Below are positions 1,233 through 11,718 of a stretch of DNA of 11,911 nt, piece after piece. A program made the translations under genes and the position numbers. How positions within the stretch are numbered: position 1 is the first letter of the stretch; the number at the start of each line of letters is the position of its first letter. This DNA is from Herpetosiphon llansteffanensis (GTDB lineage Bacteria; Chloroflexota; Chloroflexia; Chloroflexales; Herpetosiphonaceae), in NCBI RefSeq assembly GCF_003205875.1, contig NZ_PUBZ01000089.1, positions 64,001-75,911 of the forward strand, read 5' to 3'. The notes under the pieces were generated by a model, which searched no databases, was not told the DNA's origin, and saw nothing but the letters and a program-made list of their open reading frames with translations.

Positions 1233-1268
1233 AAAAGAGCTTGGGGTTGCTGCCTCAAGCTCTTTTTT
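1233..1268 (+). terminator. Rho-independent terminator (or attenuator) after lgt
   Basis: Stem AGAGCTTG (1236-1243) pairs with CAAGCTCT (1256-1263). Flanking A/T base pairs and an inner GG/CC extension lengthen the stem. A T-tract TTTTT follows at 1264-1268. The hairpin begins 5 nt after the lgt stop. Confidence 0.6.
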
Positions 1269-1362
1269 CGCAACAATCAACCCCTAAACCACGTACCTTT
1301 TGCAAGATTTTCTCCCAATTCTGGCCATTTTCAGCAATGTTCTTTTTGAGAAAGGGCTTATT

Positions 1363-2742
1363 ATGTTTGGCGTTTTGCGTGGGTGCTCGCCGCACCTCGA
1401 TCAATCGACCCATGCCGCTTGGTGGAGCCATATTTGTGGCATGTGCCTCACCTTGCGCGACCAGCACGGCCAAGTTGCGCGCATCACCACGAATTACGAT
1501 GCAGCCTTGCTTTCGGCCTTGTACGAAGCGCAACGCCCTGAACAAGGCGCACGCCGCACCAGTGTTTGTGCCTTGCGCAGCTTTCGAGCGCTCGATGTAG
1601 TTGCTGCTGATGATCATGGGTCGCGCTATGCAGCAGCGGTCAGTTTGCTGATGGCAGCAATTCGGCTACGCGATAATGTGGCCGACCGCGATGGCTGGGC
1701 TGGCAAGGTTCCCTTCGTCGCCAATGGCGTAGCCAAACGCTGGGATAAGCAGGCAGAACAAACTGCCCGTGAATTAGGCTTCGAGCCAGCCTTGCTGCGC
1801 GAACAAGCAGTTGCCCAAGCAGCAGTTGAAGCCTTGCCGAACGCCGATTTTTGCACCTACTCGGCTCCAACCGAGGCCGCTGTCGGCGCAGCCTTTCGGC
1901 ATACCGCGATTTTGGCCAACCAACCAAGCAATGCCGAGCCGCTTGAGCAAATGGGCCGCATGTATGGCCGTATGATGTTGCTGCTCGATAGCTATGGCGA
2001 TTTTGCCGAAGATCAAGCGCGTGGCCATTTTAATGCGCTGGCTGCTACGCCCCAAGCTGAATTGCGCACCGCGGCACATAAAATTTTCAATGATGCATTG
2101 GCAACCTTGCGCCAACACTGGCAACGCTTAACCCTTTTGCAAGCCCATTTGGTTGAGGTGCTATTGCTGAATATGTTGCCAGCAATTGGATCAAAGGCCT
2201 TTGGGGCCTGCAAGCGCCATAGTTTGGCCTGCGCGACAGCCTTGCCGATTGCAGCGGCATTAATTCCAGCCATGGCCAGCGATTACGATGACGATCCATC
2301 GCGCCGCGACCCCAACCGCGCCTACACTGGGCCAACGCGGGCGCTCAAACCCCACGAAAACCCAGAGTACCAAGGCCAATACCCGCAACAACCACCTTAT
2401 CAAGGCCAACAATATCCATCGCAATATCCGCCGCAGTACAATCCAAATGATCCCACGATGTTACCACCAGGCACGTTGCCGCCTGCAAGCTCGCATCCTG
2501 CGCCGCAAGGCCATTATCAAGATAGCAAGCGTGATGTGGCGTTAGGTGCGGCCTTGTGTTGCTGCCAAAGCCGCCGCCATTCGCATCGCTCACGCAGCCG
2601 CTGTTGTGATAGCGATTGCTGTGATTGTTGTCAGTGTTCATGTTTATGTTGCGATGTAACCGATGCCTGTGAAGGCGGCTGTGGCTGTTGCGAATGCGGG
2701 AGTTGCTGCGAATGTGGCGATTGCTGTAGCTGCGATTGTTAA
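1363..2742 (+). CDS. Cysteine-tailed protein of unknown function: N-terminal Cys/His cluster domain, a Q/P/Y-rich linker and a 61-aa, 25-Cys metallothionein-like tail
   Basis: The ORF is 1.38 kb and continuous. The ATG at 1363 is preceded by GAGAAAGGG with a 6-nt spacer. The track's upstream ATG at 1300 has no SD and lies 32 nt after the terminator, so I rejected it. The N-terminus MFGVLRGCSPHLDQSTHAAWWSHICGMCLTL has Cys8, His11, His17, His23, Cys25 and Cys28. From memory only, this resembles an actinobacterial conserved-hypothetical family (possibly DUF5685). Residues ~330-390 read NPEYQGQYPQQPPYQGQQYPSQYPPQYNPNDP and look disordered. The last 61 residues, CCCQSRRHSHRSRSRCCDSDCCDCCQCSCLCCDVTDACEGGCGCCECGSCCECGDCCSCDC, contain 25 Cys mixed with Asp/Glu. 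There is no signal peptide or TM segment, so the protein is predicted cytoplasmic. Confidence 0.75.
   Translation: MFGVLRGCSPHLDQSTHAAWWSHICGMCLTLRDQHGQVARITTNYDAALLSALYEAQRPEQGARRTSVCALRSFRALDVVAADDHGSRYAAAVSLLMAAIRLRDNVADRDGWAGKVPFVANGVAKRWDKQAEQTARELGFEPALLREQAVAQAAVEALPNADFCTYSAPTEAAVGAAFRHTAILANQPSNAEPLEQMGRMYGRMMLLLDSYGDFAEDQARGHFNALAATPQAELRTAAHKIFNDALATLRQHWQRLTLLQAHLVEVLLLNMLPAIGSKAFGACKRHSLACATALPIAAALIPAMASDYDDDPSRRDPNRAYTGPTRALKPHENPEYQGQYPQQPPYQGQQYPSQYPPQYNPNDPTMLPPGTLPPASSHPAPQGHYQDSKRDVALGAALCCCQSRRHSHRSRSRCCDSDCCDCCQCSCLCCDVTDACEGGCGCCECGSCCECGDCCSCDC
2557..2739 (+). repeat. Low-complexity TGT/TGC (Cys-codon)-rich quasi-repeat DNA that encodes the poly-Cys tail
   Basis: Short units recur imperfectly in-frame, for example GATTGCTGT, GTTGCTGCGAATG and TGCGAATG(C/T)GG; compare GTTGCGAATGCGG with GCTGCGAATGTGG. 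This is a potential slippage substrate. Confidence 0.55.
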
Positions 2743-2750
2743 AATGCAAA

Positions 2751-2781
2751 CCCCGCCATGCGTCTAGGCTGCATGGCGGGG
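2751..2781. terminator. Bidirectional intrinsic terminator between the convergent genes 1363-2742 (+) and DoxX (-)
   Basis: The perfect inverted repeat CCCCGCCATGC (2751-2761) / GCATGGCGGGG (2771-2781) encloses a 9-nt loop. On the + strand TGTGTTTATCTG follows. On the - strand TTTGCATTTTAACAA follows. Confidence 0.65.
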
Positions 2782-2805
2782 TCGCTGTGTTTATCTGTAA
2801 GTTTT

Positions 2806-3258
2806 TTAGGCGCGAGCAGTAATTTGGCGGCCGGTCAAGCGTGGGCTGAGCAAGTTGTCCAGCGCCAATGAGCCTGAACCAAGCAAGACCAAGGCAAGGC
2901 TTGCCCCAATCAAAGCCAACACATATTCGTAGCCACCATTTTGTGATGAGAAACCATTTTCCAAGTGCACGGTTACCAAAGCCACAACCATGGCAATTGC
3001 TTCAGCCACTGCGACATAGCGCGTAAAGAGGCCGAGAATCAACATAATCCCGCCAATGAGTTCGGTCGCAATCAACAAAATCGCCATGAAATAAGGGGCT
3101 GGAATGCCAAGGCTGCCAAGGAACCCAGAAGTTCCATCAAGCCCACCTTCGCCAGTGAACTTATCCCAACCGTGCATAAAGAAAATAAAACCAACCACAA
3201 TTCGCAAAATAGCGATCCCAAACCCTGGCTTATCGAGTAATTTATTGATACTTGCCAT
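2806..3258 (-). CDS. DoxX-family integral membrane protein
   Basis: The 150-aa protein has four predicted TM helices and the DoxX-type N-terminus LRIVVGFIFFMHGWDKF. An AGGAG site (complement of 3268-3272) lies 9 nt upstream of the ATG, which is the complement of 3256-3258. Confidence 0.85.
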   Translation of the reverse strand: MASINKLLDKPGFGIAILRIVVGFIFFMHGWDKFTGEGGLDGTSGFLGSLGIPAPYFMAILLIATELIGGIMLILGLFTRYVAVAEAIAMVVALVTVHLENGFSSQNGGYEYVLALIGASLALVLLGSGSLALDNLLSPRLTGRQITARA

Positions 3259-3615: not shown

Positions 3616-5946
3616 TTACTTGGCAGTGGCACTTTGGCGTTTAACCGCAACATCGGTTTTGCGATGTTGCAAGTGTTCGGCAATCACATACGAGCCAATC
3701 ACGAAGGCCGCAGCTGCCACTTGCGAGGCAATGCCTTCCCACGTTGCGTAGAAGCCCAGCCACATATTGGCCCAATAGGGAATTTCGAGGCTGCGAATTG
3801 GGTGCAATGGCATCCAGCCAACCAATTGCATAATGTGGACCGTGTTGCCAACCATAATCAGCAGCACCGCGCCAATCATCACACCAGTAACGATCAGCAT
3901 CTTCTTATGCGGTAATTTTGCTTGCAAACCAAAGACCAGCACGCCAACCAAGGCCGTGCCGCCAAGCCCCAGTGCCACCCCACCAAGCACCACTTGGGTG
4001 CTGGCTTCGAGCACCAGCGCTTGCAAAAAGAGCACGGTTTCAACGCCTTCGCGATAGATGCTGGTAAAGCCCAAGGTGATCAAGCCCAGCCAAAGCCCAG
4101 CTTTGCCGCCGATAATTCGGCGTTTTTGGGCATGGAAATTGGCCATCCAGCCAGTCCAATAAACTTTGTGAAAAAACCAGTTGGTGATCAACAGCAACAC
4201 ACCAATCGCAATCAACGAAACAATCGCCTCGATCTTTTCTTGATCGCCACGGCGAATTAGTTCATTGATTAGGCCACGTGCCAACATCCAGGTTAGGGCT
4301 GTAGCAACCATAGCGAGGGCTGCGCCAATCCAAATTGGCTTGCGATAGCTGCGTTGTTCGCCAATTTTGAGGCTGGCGAGCAGCGAGGCCAAAATCAACA
4401 CAGCTTCTAAGCCTTCACGGAACACAATCACCGCAGCGCTGGTTGCCACAGCTTCTGGCGTGCTGGAGCCGCCAAGGGCATCTTGCGCCAAATCAAGTTG
4501 TTTATCCAAGGCTTGACGGCTGGCACGAATGTCGCTCAACGACGCTTTTTGGCGAATCAACTCGGCAAGGCCAGTAAATTCGTCTTTGCCATACCAAAAG
4601 AGATTTTCAATTGGGGCTTTGTATTCTGGCGCAAACACAATCAAACGTGCTTCTGGGCCAGATTCGAGCACAGCGTAGGCTTCCAAACGCGCCGATTCAG
4701 CCAGATCGTATTGATCGCCAGCAACCGCATTTTCCATCTGATCAAGCATTGAATCGATCACATCGAAATCGCCTTCGAGGCTCGATTTTTGCCACTCGGC
4801 GGGCATAATTGAGGCCAAGGTTGTGGTAATACTATCGACTTTGGCTTGCACTGCATCAGGATCGGCAACGCTGGTACGTTGGGCCGCAGCAGTCAAAATC
4901 GTTTCAAGATCGCGCAACTCGCCAGCAACTTGCTGGGTTTTGGTCGCATCAATTTCGACCAACAAGCTTTCGAGGTCGCTAAATGCAGCAGCAGCGCCAT
5001 TGCGGAAGGTCGTGGCTTCTTGAATTTCGAGATCAAGCGTTACTTGGCCGTTGCGCACGCCACGTTCATATTCAACTGGCACGAGGCTCAAGAATCGGCG
5101 CAATTGACCAGCACGGCGCACTTGCTCTGATGGGCTTAGTGGAGCTGCGCGAAAGCCGCTGAGCGAGCCTTCAAAGGTCGTAATTGCCGTTTCAAGGTTG
5201 GCGTTGCTCAGCGCTGCTTCGCGCAAGGCTTGGGCATTGGTTAATGCACTATCAGCCTTATCAGGGTATTGCCCACGATACGCTGGCTCTAAAATATTAA
5301 AATAGCCTTGAATTGCCGCGCCGGCCTCTGCTTGTTGAATGCGATTACCTTTTTGGGCGGCGCTGCGCAGAGTACGCAAACTTTCGTTAAGTTTGGCTTG
5401 GTAGGTATCCAACAAATCTGCATCGAGCGCAATGCGGGCATCGGCGGCGCTATAGGCTGCTTGTTTCCATTGCTCGATGGCGCGGGCTGCATCGCCGTTG
5501 GGGCGTGAAAAGCGCGTTGCATTGCGAAACTCGCGCACTGGCAGCCATTGCAAGGCTTGTTCTGGCTTGCCTGTATCGATTGATTGGCCAACGATGCCAT
5601 AGCTGGCTTTGAGCAAATCGATCCAGAGCAACGATCGCTGTTGAGCAAATGCCGCAACATCGTTGGCTTCCAAGGCTTTGGTTAAATCTGCCCAGCGCGT
5701 GGCGATTGTGCTCGCCTGTTGGGGAGCCAAGCTGGTCAAATCTTTGGCGAGGGCTTGATCATACAAGGCTTGGGCTTCGCTGACTAAACGTTTGGCGTTG
5801 GCAGCATCAGTTGTGAGCGATAATTGGGCTTGCACCAACAACGAACGCACCGATTCGCTGGCTTGGGCTGGTGATGGTTCGGCTGCCATGGCAGACCATG
5901 GCAATAAGGCAACGACCAACGCCAGCAAAAAACGACGCAACCACAT
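3616..5946 (-). CDS. FTR1/EfeU-family high-affinity iron permease fused to an N-terminal signal peptide and a ~490-aa extracytoplasmic helical domain
   Basis: The C-terminal ~270 aa has 7 predicted TM helices. REGLE lies in TM1 (encoded at 4405-4419) and REGVE in TM4, which is the FTR1 family's twin RExxE signature. I chose the start at 5946 (MWLRRFLLALVVALLPWSAMA|AEP, a signal peptide) because AGGAG lies 5 nt upstream. The track ORF extends to 6129, but that upstream stretch has no SD and overlaps stem-loops. The N-domain is Ala/Gln/Leu-rich and all-helical. Its C-terminal part (AEWQKSSLEGD ... PIENLFWYGKDEF) resembles the neighbouring lipoprotein (AAWLKSSPTYEQMEG ... PGNLFGVTESTLWG). Confidence 0.8.
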   Translation of the reverse strand: MWLRRFLLALVVALLPWSAMAAEPSPAQASESVRSLLVQAQLSLTTDAANAKRLVSEAQALYDQALAKDLTSLAPQQASTIATRWADLTKALEANDVAAFAQQRSLLWIDLLKASYGIVGQSIDTGKPEQALQWLPVREFRNATRFSRPNGDAARAIEQWKQAAYSAADARIALDADLLDTYQAKLNESLRTLRSAAQKGNRIQQAEAGAAIQGYFNILEPAYRGQYPDKADSALTNAQALREAALSNANLETAITTFEGSLSGFRAAPLSPSEQVRRAGQLRRFLSLVPVEYERGVRNGQVTLDLEIQEATTFRNGAAAAFSDLESLLVEIDATKTQQVAGELRDLETILTAAAQRTSVADPDAVQAKVDSITTTLASIMPAEWQKSSLEGDFDVIDSMLDQMENAVAGDQYDLAESARLEAYAVLESGPEARLIVFAPEYKAPIENLFWYGKDEFTGLAELIRQKASLSDIRASRQALDKQLDLAQDALGGSSTPEAVATSAAVIVFREGLEAVLILASLLASLKIGEQRSYRKPIWIGAALAMVATALTWMLARGLINELIRRGDQEKIEAIVSLIAIGVLLLITNWFFHKVYWTGWMANFHAQKRRIIGGKAGLWLGLITLGFTSIYREGVETVLFLQALVLEASTQVVLGGVALGLGGTALVGVLVFGLQAKLPHKKMLIVTGVMIGAVLLIMVGNTVHIMQLVGWMPLHPIRSLEIPYWANMWLGFYATWEGIASQVAAAAFVIGSYVIAEHLQHRKTDVAVKRQSATAK

Positions 5947-6010
5947 ACAAGCTCCTAAAATTGTGGTTTGCTGCTCCTCACAATGAGCAACAGCAAAATA
6001 AACCGACAAA

Positions 6011-6042
6011 GGACGTGAACTGTATGCCAACAGTTCACGCCC
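6011..6042 (-). terminator. Terminator/attenuator-like hairpin inside the 277-nt spacer between the lipoprotein and permease genes
   Basis: GGACGTGAACTG (6011-6022) pairs with CAGTTCACGCCC (6031-6042), giving a 9-bp perfect core plus 2 bp after one mismatch. On the minus-strand RNA it is followed by UUUGUCGGUUUAUUUUGCUG. Confidence 0.45.
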
Positions 6043-6223
6043 TTTGCTGCTTAAGTTTTGTGATGGAGGGACGCACACCCAAACTCCATCGACCTTGCTC
6101 CGTCGCAACTTCTTTCTCATTGATCGCATAGGTATAACTGTGATACAAGCAGTATACCTATTTTGGTTCGATTTGCGAATCAGTTCGTGAACCGATTTTT
6201 AGCCTAATCCTGTGTTTTTTTGC

Positions 6224-7303
6224 TTACTCGCTGATTTTCACGTTCAAGCGAGCAGCAATTTGGCTGACTTGGCCGGTAATTGCATCAGCACGATTTTGGG
6301 CTTCAGCACCGAGCAAATCGGCTTCTTCAGCAGTAAAGCGTTGGCCAGCTTGTTCTTTTTTGTGCACATCGGCAACAAAATCGCGGAGGCCTTGCAAGTT
6401 GGTCTTGATTTGGCGATCTTGGTCGGCATCGAGGGTGGCAATTTTGGGGCTAAGGCTATCGTAGACAACTTGCAAGCTGCCCAGAATATCGCCAATGTCG
6501 GCCAAGCGTGAGATGGCCACAAAATCGCGTTGGGTGCTGCTATCGCCAGCAACAAAGCGCGAATTCTTCCACGAATCGAAATATTCGTTCATGGTTGGCA
6601 CCATCACGACCAAGGCGCTGAATGCGTCGCTGTCGGTTGGTTCCCACGCTTTGGCGGCGATATCAAGCTCGGTTGCGGTAGCCTTGAGCTTTTGGGCTGC
6701 TGCCAATAAGACATTGGCTTCTGGCAACGATTCGCCAAATTCCACCGTGCCGTTGCCGTTGATGTCTGCTTCAACATCGGTGATGCGGAAGGCATCGTAC
6801 GTGCCCCAGAGCGTGCTTTCGGTTACGCCAAACAAGTTGCCTGGTTTGGCAACCGTGCGGCCATCAGCCAAGCTCAAATCATAATTGACCACGCTATCGC
6901 CGCCTTCTTCTGCAGAAGCACCAGCATCAAGCGTTACGTCGAAATCGGCCAAGCTGCTTACTCCTGCAACGATCCCTTCCATTTGTTCGTAGGTAGGGCT
7001 GGATTTCAACCAAGCTGCTTTGGCATCGTTCAAGGTCGTGCCAACCTCAGCTTGCTTGCTGCGCCAGAGCGTTGCATAATCGAAATTAGCAGCTTTTGCC
7101 AAATCATAATAGCGCTGGCTAGCGGTTTCCAAAGCGGTGGTACTGGTGATCAAATCGCCAGTTTTGCCCAAAAGATAGGTCTTGATTGCGCCAAGTTCGC
7201 CAGCGGCGGCAGCTTGGGTTGGTTGCGTGGTAGGAGCAGCCTGTTCAGCACCACAGCCGAAAAGCACTGCTACGAGAGTTAATGCACAAAGCCAACGATA
7301 CAT
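6224..7303 (-). CDS. Imelysin/EfeO-EfeM-like periplasmic lipoprotein; the His of the HxxE motif is apparently replaced; it contains an EF-hand-like loop
   Basis: I preferred the ATG at 7303 with GGAGG 10 nt upstream; the track's start at 7327 is a TTG. The signal peptide MYRWLCALTLVAVLFGC ends in an LFGC lipobox. The core AAWLKSSPTYEQMEG ...(~45 aa)... GNLFGVTESTLWG (6803-6841) matches the imelysin pattern aW..sP.YE..E ... G.H.iE.LLWG, except that His becomes Gly-Val. DINGNGTVEFGE (6731-6766) fits the canonical 12-residue EF-hand loop. Confidence 0.7.
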   Translation of the reverse strand: MYRWLCALTLVAVLFGCGAEQAAPTTQPTQAAAAGELGAIKTYLLGKTGDLITSTTALETASQRYYDLAKAANFDYATLWRSKQAEVGTTLNDAKAAWLKSSPTYEQMEGIVAGVSSLADFDVTLDAGASAEEGGDSVVNYDLSLADGRTVAKPGNLFGVTESTLWGTYDAFRITDVEADINGNGTVEFGESLPEANVLLAAAQKLKATATELDIAAKAWEPTDSDAFSALVVMVPTMNEYFDSWKNSRFVAGDSSTQRDFVAISRLADIGDILGSLQVVYDSLSPKIATLDADQDRQIKTNLQGLRDFVADVHKKEQAGQRFTAEEADLLGAEAQNRADAITGQVSQIAARLNVKISE

Positions 7304-7380
7304 GAGCCAGAAACCTCCAAATGCCAAGGTCTAGTTAAATCTGTTAGTACGGAAAAAACTGTTTTTATTGTGATTGGCAG

Positions 7381-9644: not shown

Positions 9645-9881
9645 ATGCGCAAACACATGTTGGCTAGCCTTGTTGTGCTAGCACTCTTGGCTGGTTGTTC
9701 AACCACCGGTTCAGCTCCAACCACTGCTCCGGTTAACAACCAACCAACCAATCCGGCCCCAGCCCAAACTCCTGCAACCTACCCAACGCCAGCAGATGGC
9801 AACGTGGTTGTTGAGCCAACCTTGGAGCCAGGCCAATACCCAGTGCCTAACTCGCAACCAACGGCCTACCCAACTCCCTAG
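9645..9881 (+). CDS. Small (78 aa) Pro/Thr/Gln-rich secreted lipoprotein
   Basis: GGAGG at 9631-9635 sits 9 nt before the ATG. The signal peptide MRKHMLASLVVLALLAGC has a canonical LAGC lipobox. The mature part is low-complexity, with the motif YPTP recurring (PATYPTPADG ... PTAYPTP). Confidence 0.55.
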   Translation: MRKHMLASLVVLALLAGCSTTGSAPTTAPVNNQPTNPAPAQTPATYPTPADGNVVVEPTLEPGQYPVPNSQPTAYPTP

Positions 9882-10056: not shown

Positions 10057-11391
10057 ATGAAAAGTGATTTTTACGCAGCTATTTCACAGATTGCCGCTGA
10101 ACGCGGCATTCCCCGCGAGTCGGTGCAGGATGTGGTCGAGCAAGCCCTAATTTCTGCCTATCGGCGTTATTTGGGCAATAATCCGCCACCCGTCGATGTT
10201 AAGATTGAATTAGAGCCAAACACTGGCCGCATTCGGGTTTACGCCGAGAAGCAAGTTGTTGATGAAGTGATGGATGATCGCTTCGAGATCGACATTGAAG
10301 ATGCGCGTAACGTGCGTGCCGATGTTGAAATTGGCGAAACCGTCTATGTTGAAAGCACGCCCGACGATTTTGGCCGGATTGCCGCCCAAACTGCCAAGCA
10401 AGTTGTGCTCCAACGGATCAAAGAAGTTGAACGCGACCATATTTATGGCGAATACTTTGATCGTGAAGGCGAAATTGTAACTGCCACCGTGCAGCGTACC
10501 GCCAAAGGCAACGTCATTTTGGAAGTTGGGCGTGCAGAAGCGATTCTGCCGCAAAAAGAGCAAATTAGCCACGACAACTATCGCCATGGTCAGCGGCTTA
10601 AAGTCTATTTGATGGAAGCCCGCCGTGATGATCCCCGTGGCCCGCGCTTGGTGGCCTCGCGCACCCACAAAGATTTGATCAAACGCTTGTTTGAGATGGA
10701 AGTGCCAGAAATTTATAACGGCACAGTTGAAATTAAATCAATTGCCCGCGAACCAGGCTTACGCTCGAAAGTAGCCGTGCATGCCCGTCAAGAAGGCATC
10801 GACCCGGTTGGCTCGTGCGTGGGGATGCGCGGGATTCGGATTCAAAATATTGTCAATGAGCTGAACGGCGAGAAGATCGACGTGGTGCAATGGGGCGCTG
10901 ATATGCGGGTATTTATTGCCAACGCCCTCAGCCCAGCCCAAGTCGTCGAAGTTCATCTTGATGAAGGCGAGAAAACGGCCACCGTGGTCGTGCCAGATAA
11001 ACAATTGTCGTTGGCAATTGGCAAGGAGGGCCAAAACGTTCGTTTGGCAGCCAAACTGGTTGGTTGGCGCATCGATATTAAGAGCGCATCTTCACTCCTC
11101 GAGGAAGAACGCGCTGCTGCCGAAGTGCGCGAAGCTGCCGCGTCGGAACAAATGCTGCAAGAAGCAGCGCTTTCAACCGCTAAAGTCGAAACCCGCAAGG
11201 TCCGTGTCGATTCCTTGGTTACCTATCAAGGGCGACAATATGGCCCATTGCCAGCAGAGATTATTGGCGAAGAAGTCGCGTTGCGTGCCGCCGCCCAAAA
11301 ACTCAATATTTATTTCAATGACAAGCTCATTGCTAGCTATATCATCGAAGATGAAGCTGGCGAGAGCGACGAGACGGATACCGAGGCATAG
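10057..11391 (+). CDS. nusA: Transcription termination/antitermination factor NusA, with a ~100-aa C-terminal extension
   Basis: The N-terminal domain, S1 region ([21 protein letters not shown]) and tandem KH domains ([15 protein letters not shown] ... [23 protein letters not shown]) are all present. GAGG lies 6 nt before the ATG. The gene is followed by ylxR, as in the conserved nusA operon. Confidence 0.92.
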
Positions 11392-11394
11392 CCT

Positions 11395-11718
11395 ATGGCT
11401 GCTCAAAAGCAGTCGCCGCGCCCACGCCATGTGCCACAGCGCATGTGTGTTGCTTGCCGGCGTACCGATAATAAACGTCAGTTGGTACGTCTTGTACGCT
11501 TGGCCGACCAAAGTGTTGTGGTCGATCCAAGTGGCAAGCAAGCGGGCCGCGGTGCATATCTCTGTGCTGAACGCCCATGTTGGACCAATGCGCTAAAGCG
11601 CGGGGCCTTAGAGCGAGCCTTGCGCGTCGAATTGAGCGCGATTGATCAGCAGGCTCTGCAAACAATTGCTGATCAATTTCCCGATGCTGACCCAGCGGTG
11701 GAGGCTGCGATGAACTAA
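11395..11718 (+). CDS. ylxR: YlxR/DUF448-family RNA-binding protein (RnpM-like) of the nusA-infB operon
   Basis: It carries the signature R.CV.CR.....L.R.V ... GRGAY.C....C. It starts 3 nt after the nusA stop, with GAGG 8 nt upstream. Confidence 0.85.
   Translation: MAAQKQSPRPRHVPQRMCVACRRTDNKRQLVRLVRLADQSVVVDPSGKQAGRGAYLCAERPCWTNALKRGALERALRVELSAIDQQALQTIADQFPDADPAVEAAMN

Follow-up and report, generated by a model that had tools for sequence, protein, structure and literature searches.

A DUF5685-family protein of Herpetosiphon llansteffanensis joins a predicted isoprenyl-diphosphate-synthase-like domain to a cysteine-dense tail

Results and Discussion

An ordinary member of a catalogued family

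An 11,911-nt stretch of the Herpetosiphon llansteffanensis genome (contig NZ_PUBZ01000089.1, positions 64,001 to 75,911; the window, to whose first letter all coordinates refer) encodes a protein that is an ordinary member of the DUF5685 family, in which a conserved N-terminal domain is followed by a disordered linker and a C-terminal tail dense in cysteine and aspartate. The fold predicted for the domain is that of isoprenyl diphosphate synthases, and the tail is conserved in composition in nearly all close relatives. We propose, with somewhat less than even confidence, that the protein is cytoplasmic, that its Cys/Asp tail forms thiolate clusters with metals and that the domain to which the tail is tethered binds a Mg-diphosphate ligand.

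Every defining feature of the family that was tested is present. Residues 1-261 match Pfam DUF5685 (PF18937) with 95.1 bits against a gathering cut-off of 26.7 (E 6e-27, model positions 1-254 of 272), and the MFG start, the H-x-C-G-x-C motif, C69, D104/D108 and D209/D213/D217 are all found in the window protein. All 47 of 47 aligned relatives match DUF5685 as well, while no NCBIfam model was matched by the window protein. An earlier note on this DNA, made from the sequence alone, had described a multi-domain protein whose N-terminal part was tentatively placed in an actinobacterial conserved-hypothetical family; domain, linker and tail were all recovered here, and that family corresponds to DUF5685. 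The same note took the architecture to be undescribed, and this does not hold: the arrangement is the standard one of a family already catalogued, for which a one-genome-per-species scan gave at least 560 confirmed matches, and a protein from Herpetosiphon sp. NSE202 that is 97% identical is already deposited as 'DUF5685 family protein' (identity to H. aurantiacus ABX03117.1 is 90%).

A search of 1.84 billion cluster representatives with the N-terminal domain as the only query returned 1925 clusters at E<1e-3 and 148 at E<1e-30. In the one-genome-per-species scan, hosts among the matches listed are mycelial Actinomycetota (Streptomyces, Kitasatospora, Amycolatopsis, Saccharothrix, Nocardia, Nonomuraea, Actinomadura, Thermobifida and others) and Chloroflexota, and the family also occurs in Desulfococcaceae and Tsukamurella; the three-part layout of the window protein was seen in Streptomyces, Kitasatospora, Amycolatopsis, Nocardia, Nonomuraea, Chloroflexota and Desulfococcaceae. 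On plasmids, a tblastn search found only four copies, all actinobacterial and either annotated DUF5685 or unannotated. Most hosts grow as filaments or mycelia (actinomycetes, Herpetosiphon, Ca. Hadersleviella, Ardenticatenaceae, Desulfococcaceae), with Tsukamurella also on the list, a pattern that is anecdotal. Streptomyces carries two paralogue types, one of ~410 residues that has a CDC-rich tail and a CYSTM-like hydrophobic segment, and one of ~459 residues in which a long Gly/Ser-rich insert comes after the Cys cluster and the chain finishes with CCNPCKCCCDCCD; strain SKN60 has both. The S. coelicolor orthologue is presumably SCO1748.

The poly-cysteine tail

The tail occupies residues 399-459 (2557..2739, +; CCCQSRRHSHRSRSRCCDSDCCDCCQCSCLCCDVTDACEGGCGCCECGSCCECGDCCSCDC) and ends in CSCDC. 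Its 61 residues include 25 Cys (41%) arranged as nine CC, nine CxC and two CxxC units, together with ten Asp/Glu and an HSH triplet, so that the cysteine count and motifs reported at first reading are confirmed. The seven neighbouring proteins of the window have between them 10 Cys in 2736 residues (0.37%) and the DUF5685 protein has 32, which puts the enrichment in the tail at ~110-fold over the neighbours, with a binomial probability of ~1e-44 for 25 or more Cys in 61 residues.

Pfam PF18937, with its 272 model positions, spans the domain only, and the tail likewise lies outside the N-terminal query used in the searches, yet nearly all full-length matches carry one. With a tail scored as at least 8 Cys within the last 50 residues, 79 of the 80 best species-genome loci drawn from the at least 560 matches possess one, the lone exception running off its contig, as do 226 of 238 relatives that are long enough, the exceptions here looking like fragments or frameshifts. 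The closest homologue, from NSE202, which has one Cys fewer than the window protein, has 22 Cys in its last 50 residues. In all DUF5685 relatives examined the tail is the C-terminus of a 320-500-residue protein, and in none is it free-standing. A homology search with the tail as sole query returned nothing, its word index having yielded no candidates. Because nearly all full-length relatives have the tail, the domain-linker-tail layout is the norm of the clade and not a novelty of the window locus.

In the last 50 residues, Cys makes up 32%, Gly 15% and Asp 15% across 153 representatives, with a median of two aromatics, and the last 60 residues contain between 8 and 28 Cys (median 18). More than half of the CxC units in this set are CDC (432 of 818). 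The chain itself ends in Cys in 85 of the 153, in a CxC unit (CDC, CSC, CGC or CNC) in 69 and in CDC in 41. Length and sequence of the tail drift freely among relatives while its composition is kept.

Selection on the coding sequence was estimated from codon alignments against the NSE202 and H. aurantiacus genes by the Nei-Gojobori method. Against NSE202, dN/dS rises from 0.03 in the N-terminal domain to 0.046 in the linker and 0.058 in the tail. The comparison with H. aurantiacus shows all 25 of 25 tail Cys kept, 11 of their codons having switched synonymously between TGT and TGC. The two length differences between the tail of the window protein and those of the other Herpetosiphon genes are in-frame insertions, and an 18-nt tandem duplication at 2689-2726 suggests that the tail grows through slippage while selection holds its composition. 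An assembly artefact or frameshift in the TGT/TGC region, which the earlier note had named along with loss of the tail in orthologues among the outcomes that would undo its account, is ruled out by these in-frame indels, by a dN/dS of ~0.06 and by independent assemblies in which the tail is seen (the H. aurantiacus complete genome CP000875, strain NSE202 and several metagenome-assembled genomes); orthologues keep the tail, and they keep it under purifying selection.

The N-terminal domain

The DUF5685 domain proper (residues 1-280; 1363..2202, +) is predicted to have an isoprenyl-diphosphate-synthase-like all-alpha fold with one added beta hairpin (residues 64-80). An AlphaFold2 model built from a 47-sequence alignment shows a helical bundle with a predicted local distance difference test score (pLDDT) above 90 over residues 1-280, residues 283-459 scoring mostly below 50, and the bundle has the all-alpha isoprenoid-synthase topology. 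Structural matches to the model include MoeN5 (15.8), non-catalytic small subunits (~15.5), squalene synthases (~10) and terpene cyclases (~9), and Foldseek agrees with the assignment.

Two Asp motifs are found where such a fold would hold its metal. The first, D104-N-V-A-D108 (1672..1686, +), lies at the C-terminal end of helix 85-107, and the second is a conserved triad, D209-x3-D213-x3-D217 (1987..2013, +). D104 and D108 align with Asp 1 and Asp 5 of the first DDxxD in the polyprenyl synthetase 4lob and in E. coli IspB; D209 and D213 align with Asp 1 and Asp 5 of the second Asp-rich motif in both, and D217 falls on the next conserved Asp. In isoprenoid synthases Asp 1 and Asp 5 of these motifs are direct Mg2+ ligands, and the D-x3-D-x3-D triad is spaced like the NSE/DTE triad found in class I terpene synthases. 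A profile search of the PDB returned 4lob as its only match (E 0.015), with both Asp motifs in register, and no Pfam polyprenyl_synt match was found in the 47 relatives at E up to 5. The equivalence of the motifs thus rests on fold and register, because similarity at the sequence level is below significance.

Among 111 DUF5685 representatives, F2, G3, H23, C25, G26, C28, D46, C69, D104, G198, D209 and D213 are 100% conserved, D108, D217 and E156 are 99% conserved, and R40, N44, R72, R203 and N224 are conserved in at least 95%. The motifs depart from the canonical DDxxD: reading D-N/H-x-x-D and D-S/A-x-x-D-x3-D, they retain the Asp at positions 1 and 5 but not the one at position 2. In the alignments to 4lob and IspB, which are of low confidence, three further features of the synthases (RRG, the KT Lys and FQ) are likewise not kept; R40, R72 and R203 might substitute for the basic residues among these. 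Since the Asp carboxylates are kept, we infer that the domain would still bind a Mg-diphosphate ligand, probably a prenyl diphosphate, and since the RRG, the KT Lys and the FQ apparently are not, that it would probably not carry out chain elongation with isopentenyl diphosphate (IPP). The fold and its Asp motifs escaped the earlier note, and they change the range of functions that are plausible for this protein.

Such a domain could in principle have lost catalysis altogether, as in the small subunits of geranyl and geranylgeranyl diphosphate (GPP/GGPP) synthases or their recruiting proteins, and act as a scaffold or regulator whose tail mediates oligomerisation or membrane association. We regard this as quite improbable. 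The missing polyprenyl_synt match would agree with it, as would the names 'Expression regulator', 'Regulator' and 'Regulatory protein' that UniRef gives to some members, but the five Asp at metal positions and ~25 other polar residues are 95-100% conserved across phyla, which is unusual for a dead enzyme. Moreover, Pfam found no DNA-binding domain in the window protein or the 47 relatives, and no experimental source for the 'regulator' labels was traced in the literature searched.

The N-terminal cysteine/histidine site

Ahead of the Asp motifs the domain carries a Cys/His cluster, C8...H23-x-C25-G-x-C28 (1384..1446, +), whose H-x-C-G-x-C core is invariant. The window protein has the pattern C8-x2-H11-x5-H17-x5-H23-x-C25-x2-C28 exactly as first described, and the comparison across the 111 representatives separates its parts: H23, C25 and C28 are invariant and a Cys within the 22 residues before the core (positions ~8-13) is present in 107 of them, but H11 and H17 are not conserved, and the original pattern left out the invariant C69 (1567..1569, +), which sits in the beta hairpin (strands E64-69 and E75-80 in the model). 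C69 is a probable further ligand. With the Cys at 8-13, H23, C25 and C28 it would form what is probably a structural Zn or Fe-S site, stapling together the N-terminal strand, helix 1 and the hairpin in a geometry suggested by the helix topology of the model.

These residues also bear on a reading in which the whole protein is a redox or sulfur module, its tail carrying Fe-S clusters or serving as a thiol or persulfide buffer or electron relay, and an N-terminal [4Fe-4S] cluster taking part in reductive chemistry whose substrate would be an isoprenoid or another diphosphate. Three invariant and one nearly invariant Cys together with an invariant His in the domain, the very high Cys density with carboxylates in the tail, the occurrence of the family in anaerobic Desulfococcaceae as well as in aerobes, and the DoxX gene and FTR1/imelysin pair that adjoin the gene in Herpetosiphon are all points that could be cited for it. 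We nevertheless consider it unlikely: the lgt/DoxX/FTR1/imelysin neighbourhood is conserved only within Herpetosiphon, Pfam and NCBIfam detect no Fe-S family, and a Cys number that varies from 8 to 28, with variable spacing, suits loose thiolate clusters better than defined Fe-S sites.

The linker

Domain and tail are joined by a linker (residues 281-398; 2203..2556, +) that is predicted to be disordered, with pLDDT mostly below 50. It contains an Ala/Pro-rich hydrophobic stretch at residues 287-305 (2221-2277, +), a P/Q/Y-rich run from Y340 to Y359 (2380-2439, +; YPQQPPYQGQQYPSQYPPQY) and a basic or short hydrophobic stretch ahead of the tail; 20 P, 11 Q and 9 Y were counted in 98 residues, and a 12-nt tandem repeat lies at 2410-2435. 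Its character follows lineage, being P/Q/Y-rich in Herpetosiphon, P/G-rich in Streptomyces and reduced to a few basic residues in many short Chloroflexi-type proteins. The 'prion-like' linker of the earlier note is therefore present and predicted to be disordered, but its P/Q/Y character is limited to Herpetosiphon. Within that genus its dN/dS is low like that of the folded domain despite the predicted disorder, which suggests that it is more than a passive spacer there.

A hydrophobic 19-mer (Kyte-Doolittle at least 1.6) precedes the tail in the Streptomyces type and is weak at residues 287-305 of the window protein. A transmembrane segment as a feature of the family was considered and ruled out, this 19-mer being absent from most Chloroflexi-type relatives. 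Direct reading of the window protein found no N-terminal signal sequence. On the opposite strand, a 134-residue His/Asn/Arg-rich open reading frame (ORF; 2345-2749, -) spans linker and tail; it most probably arises as a side effect of low-complexity TGY/GAY coding and is no gene.

Proposed function

In the reading that we tentatively favour, the protein would work in three parts. The first (residues 1-280) would be a diverged trans-isoprenyl-diphosphate-synthase fold that keeps the Mg2+-holding carboxylates D104/D108 and D209/D213/D217, apparently lacks the synthase residues for the second substrate IPP, and adds the Cys/His site. The second would be a flexible spacer of variable length. The third, the tail, would bind soft metals (Zn, Cu(I), Cd, possibly Fe) as thiolate clusters, in the manner of a metallothionein or of a gene-encoded phytochelatin, and might in that way serve the ligand-binding domain to which it is tethered as a buffer or sensor of metal or of thiol redox state. 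A Cys-rich, aromatic-poor composition with CxC, CC and CxxC units is a metallothionein-like trait (PMC10612145, PMC7387436), and we favour a metal-thiolate tail because its composition, motifs, few aromatics, disorder and variable length resemble those of metallothioneins. Its alternating acidic residues and Cys are reminiscent of phytochelatins, and metallochaperones often bear ligand-rich tails at the C-terminus. The role in metal storage, metal sensing or redox buffering suggested in the earlier note is still plausible.

Several observations weigh against this proposal. On the side of the domain, hhalign probabilities are 6.5% against E. coli IspB and 1.5% against IspA, below significance. 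On the side of the tail, neither the tail alone nor linker plus tail matched any family in Pfam (E up to 10) or NCBIfam (E up to 1), and so there is no metallothionein match. Clustering of the neighbourhoods of the 80 best species-genome loci revealed no conserved isoprenoid, metal-homeostasis, protease or transporter partner, only lineage synteny, and a quick scan for Zur, IdeR/DmdR, CsoR and SigR boxes upstream of the gene at 73 of these 80 loci gave nothing convincing (a Nur pattern allowed 4 mismatches was non-specific at the 73 loci). Finally, a pure metal store does not explain the constant fusion to a domain of prenyl-synthase fold with an apparently intact carboxylate site.

A self-lipidating protein would account for that fusion. 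Here the domain would ionise a prenyl diphosphate on Asp-bound Mg and prenylate Cys thiolates of its own or a partner's tail, giving a membrane lipid anchor, a scheme that we judge distinctly unlikely. The near-invariance of Asp 1 and Asp 5 in both motifs, alongside the apparent loss of RRG, KT Lys and FQ, fits an acceptor different from that of the synthases; MoeN5 is among the best structural matches; the essentially obligatory fusion of domain and tail would be explained; and chains frequently end in Cys or CxC. Such CxC ends recall the CXC geranylgeranylation sites of Rab proteins, and a basic stretch often lies ahead of the tail. There is a precedent in ComQ, a homologue of farnesyl diphosphate (FPP)/GGPP synthases that prenylates the ComX peptide (PMC5331326), and some relatives match Pfam CYSTM, whose yeast members are S-palmitoylated (PMC10840359). 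On the other hand, 20 or more Cys interleaved with Asp far exceed the needs of an anchor and the tail is strongly acidic, AlphaFold2 leaves the tail undocked even in a homologue with a short linker (pLDDT ~40), a single-turnover enzyme is costly, and isoprenoid genes are not among the neighbours at the 80 loci. We also know of no enzyme of the isoprenyl-synthase fold that S-prenylates Cys, which counts against the scheme.

A stricter version, in which DUF5685 proteins are self-modifying prenyltransferases that have swapped the IPP site for a peptide acceptor and S-prenylate the CC and CxC cysteines of their own tails into a multiply lipidated anchor, is a long shot. If true, this fold would for the first time be seen to prenylate Cys and bacteria would gain their first endogenous system of protein S-prenylation, with the prenylated tail as a prokaryotic parallel to the geranylgeranylated CXC ends of Rab proteins and to the palmitoylated tails of CYSTM proteins. 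We continue to prefer a metal-binding thiolate tail on a Mg-diphosphate-binding domain.

Genomic context

The coding sequence (1363..2742, +) runs from ATG at 1363 to TAA at 2740-2742 and gives 459 residues plus stop in the ORF list and translation. ATG 1363 was taken as the start because homologues begin with MFG there; an upstream TTG at 1300 was considered and ruled out, as all homologues open with MFG at the ATG position. Upstream lies lgt (326-1228, +; Pfam LGT, E 4e-58) and downstream a convergent DoxX gene (2806-3258, -; E 7.5e-26). A terminator-like hairpin with U tract follows lgt (1233..1271, +): the hairpin at 1233-1266 folds at -22.6 kcal/mol (z -5.4) with a 15-bp stem followed by UUUUUU, and was missed by the consensus terminator scan. 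A second terminator-like hairpin, between the DUF5685 and DoxX genes (2750..2782, +), was found by that scan with a 13-bp stem including 9 GC pairs, and folds at -28.1 kcal/mol (z -4.4). The placement of the gene between lgt and DoxX with a terminator on each side, as originally read, agrees with the Pfam matches and with these two strong hairpins.

Over the 80 loci the surroundings of the gene differ by lineage. In Streptomycetaceae (~20 of the 80) it is divergent from a paralogue of the cell-division family SepF and near genes for an acyl-CoA dehydrogenase and a major facilitator superfamily transporter, in Pseudonocardiales it lies between coaE and uvrB, and in other Chloroflexi and in Nonomuraea it has yet other neighbours. 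The DUF5685 gene behaves as a stand-alone core gene, framed in the window by terminator-like hairpins. This bears on the idea that the protein is the precursor of a peptide natural product, with the tail as a core peptide that is modified and cleaved and the N-terminal domain as a very long leader or fused tailoring enzyme, an idea that we consider highly improbable. A Cys-rich C-terminus after a linker does formally resemble some ribosomal peptide precursors; however, no conserved protease, transporter, radical-SAM or cyclodehydratase neighbour occurs over the 80 loci, the gene is present in one copy at core-genome positions, and the tail drifts in length and sequence while keeping its composition.

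Further along the window, an FTR1-type iron permease gene (3616-6129, -), whose product matches Pfam over residues 564-760 and is without Pfam match over its N-terminal ~550 residues, adjoins an imelysin gene (EfeO-like, Peptidase_M75; 6224-7327, -), and the two look like an iron-uptake pair. At 9645-9881 (+) a 78-residue Pro/Thr-rich ORF with a signal-like start and a lipobox-like LLAGC may encode a small lipoprotein; it has no Pfam match. nusA (10057-11391, +) is followed by ylxR (DUF448; 11395-11718, +), and the C-terminal extension of NusA (residues 370-428) has a weak Mu-transpos_C_2 match (E 1e-7) and an acidic run at its end.

Significance

The window locus is one more copy of a catalogued family and is not new in itself; its value as a discovery is lower because sequence and family were already in the databases, and the interest lies in the family and not in the window. 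The sole paper found that mentions DUF5685 is a C. difficile domain inventory, in which it is only listed (PMC9403866). The literature searched held no functional study of DUF5685, nor any paper joining a prenyl-synthase-like fold with a flexible tail of 8-28 Cys. As far as that literature shows, three points at the level of the family may be new: the fold with its conserved Asp motifs, a Cys/His site that is invariant, and a poly-Cys/Asp tail that is nearly universal. DUF5685 is conserved across mycelial actinomycetes, with essentially all Streptomyces sampled among them, in filamentous Chloroflexota and in some Desulfobacterota, at core-genome positions and under strong purifying selection, and few sequences known from bacteria are as dense in cysteine as its tail. 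A domain of unknown function is thereby turned into a concrete, testable object, a synthase-like domain with an apparently intact carboxylate site for metal and an additional Cys/His site, tethered to a very Cys-dense tail. If the tail stores or senses metal, metal or thiol homeostasis in antibiotic-producing bacteria would have a component that has so far gone unrecognised; if it accepts prenyl groups, the family would represent a new kind of protein lipidation.

Comparison with known systems

With trans-isoprenyl diphosphate synthases the window protein shares 10-17% identity and no Pfam match; the second Asp of each motif is replaced (by N/H in the first and S/A in the second), and DUF5685 adds an N-terminal strand with the Cys/His site, the beta hairpin, the linker and the poly-Cys tail. 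It is outside the polyprenyl synthase family, having the predicted fold and neither the profile match nor the canonical DDxxD. ComQ and MoeN5 have the fold predicted for the N-terminal domain and move a prenyl group onto an acceptor other than IPP. ComQ prenylates ComX 3-4 residues from the C-terminus and needs Asp 1 and Asp 5 of its first motif to do so (PMC5331326). Its substrate, however, is a separate peptide, the acceptor is a Trp and the genes lie in comQXPA, whereas no comQXPA-type genes were found in the window or at the 80 related loci.

The CYSTM/CYSPD family (PF12734) of small eukaryotic stress proteins is similar in that a P/Q/Y- or P/G-rich region is followed by a C-terminal Cys-rich hydrophobic stretch, and CYSTM is matched by 1 of the 47 aligned relatives (E 1e-4) and by a few Streptomyces proteins. 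Its yeast members are bound to the membrane through S-palmitoylation and not by a transmembrane helix (PMC10840359). The CYSTM module differs in consisting of 5-6 Cys in one short helix that ends proteins of 60-150 residues, whereas in DUF5685 20 or more Cys with Asp come after any hydrophobic stretch. With no CYSTM match at E up to 10, the window protein lies outside that family.

The metallochaperones SlyD, HypB, UreE and CooJ carry a disordered, ligand-rich C-terminal tail on a folded domain, and in this general plan DUF5685 is like them. Their tails, in contrast, are dominated by His and shorter in Cys, and they belong to proteins of Ni handling or of urease or hydrogenase maturation encoded in matching operons, a context that DUF5685 does not have.

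With metallothioneins (SmtA/BmtA, MymT and those of eukaryotes), finally, the tail shares a high Cys content in CC, CxC and CxxC units, few aromatics, the lack of a predicted fold without metal, and variable length. It differs in that its Cys content of 32-41% is above that of typical metallothioneins, in being Asp/Gly-rich and not Lys/Ser-rich, and in being attached to a 280-residue domain where metallothioneins are free-standing small proteins. The window protein has the composition of a metallothionein, and is outside any metallothionein family by its size and by the missing family match. The alternation of acidic residue and Cys in its tail recalls the (gamma-Glu-Cys)n of phytochelatins and synthetic (Glu-Cys)n peptides.

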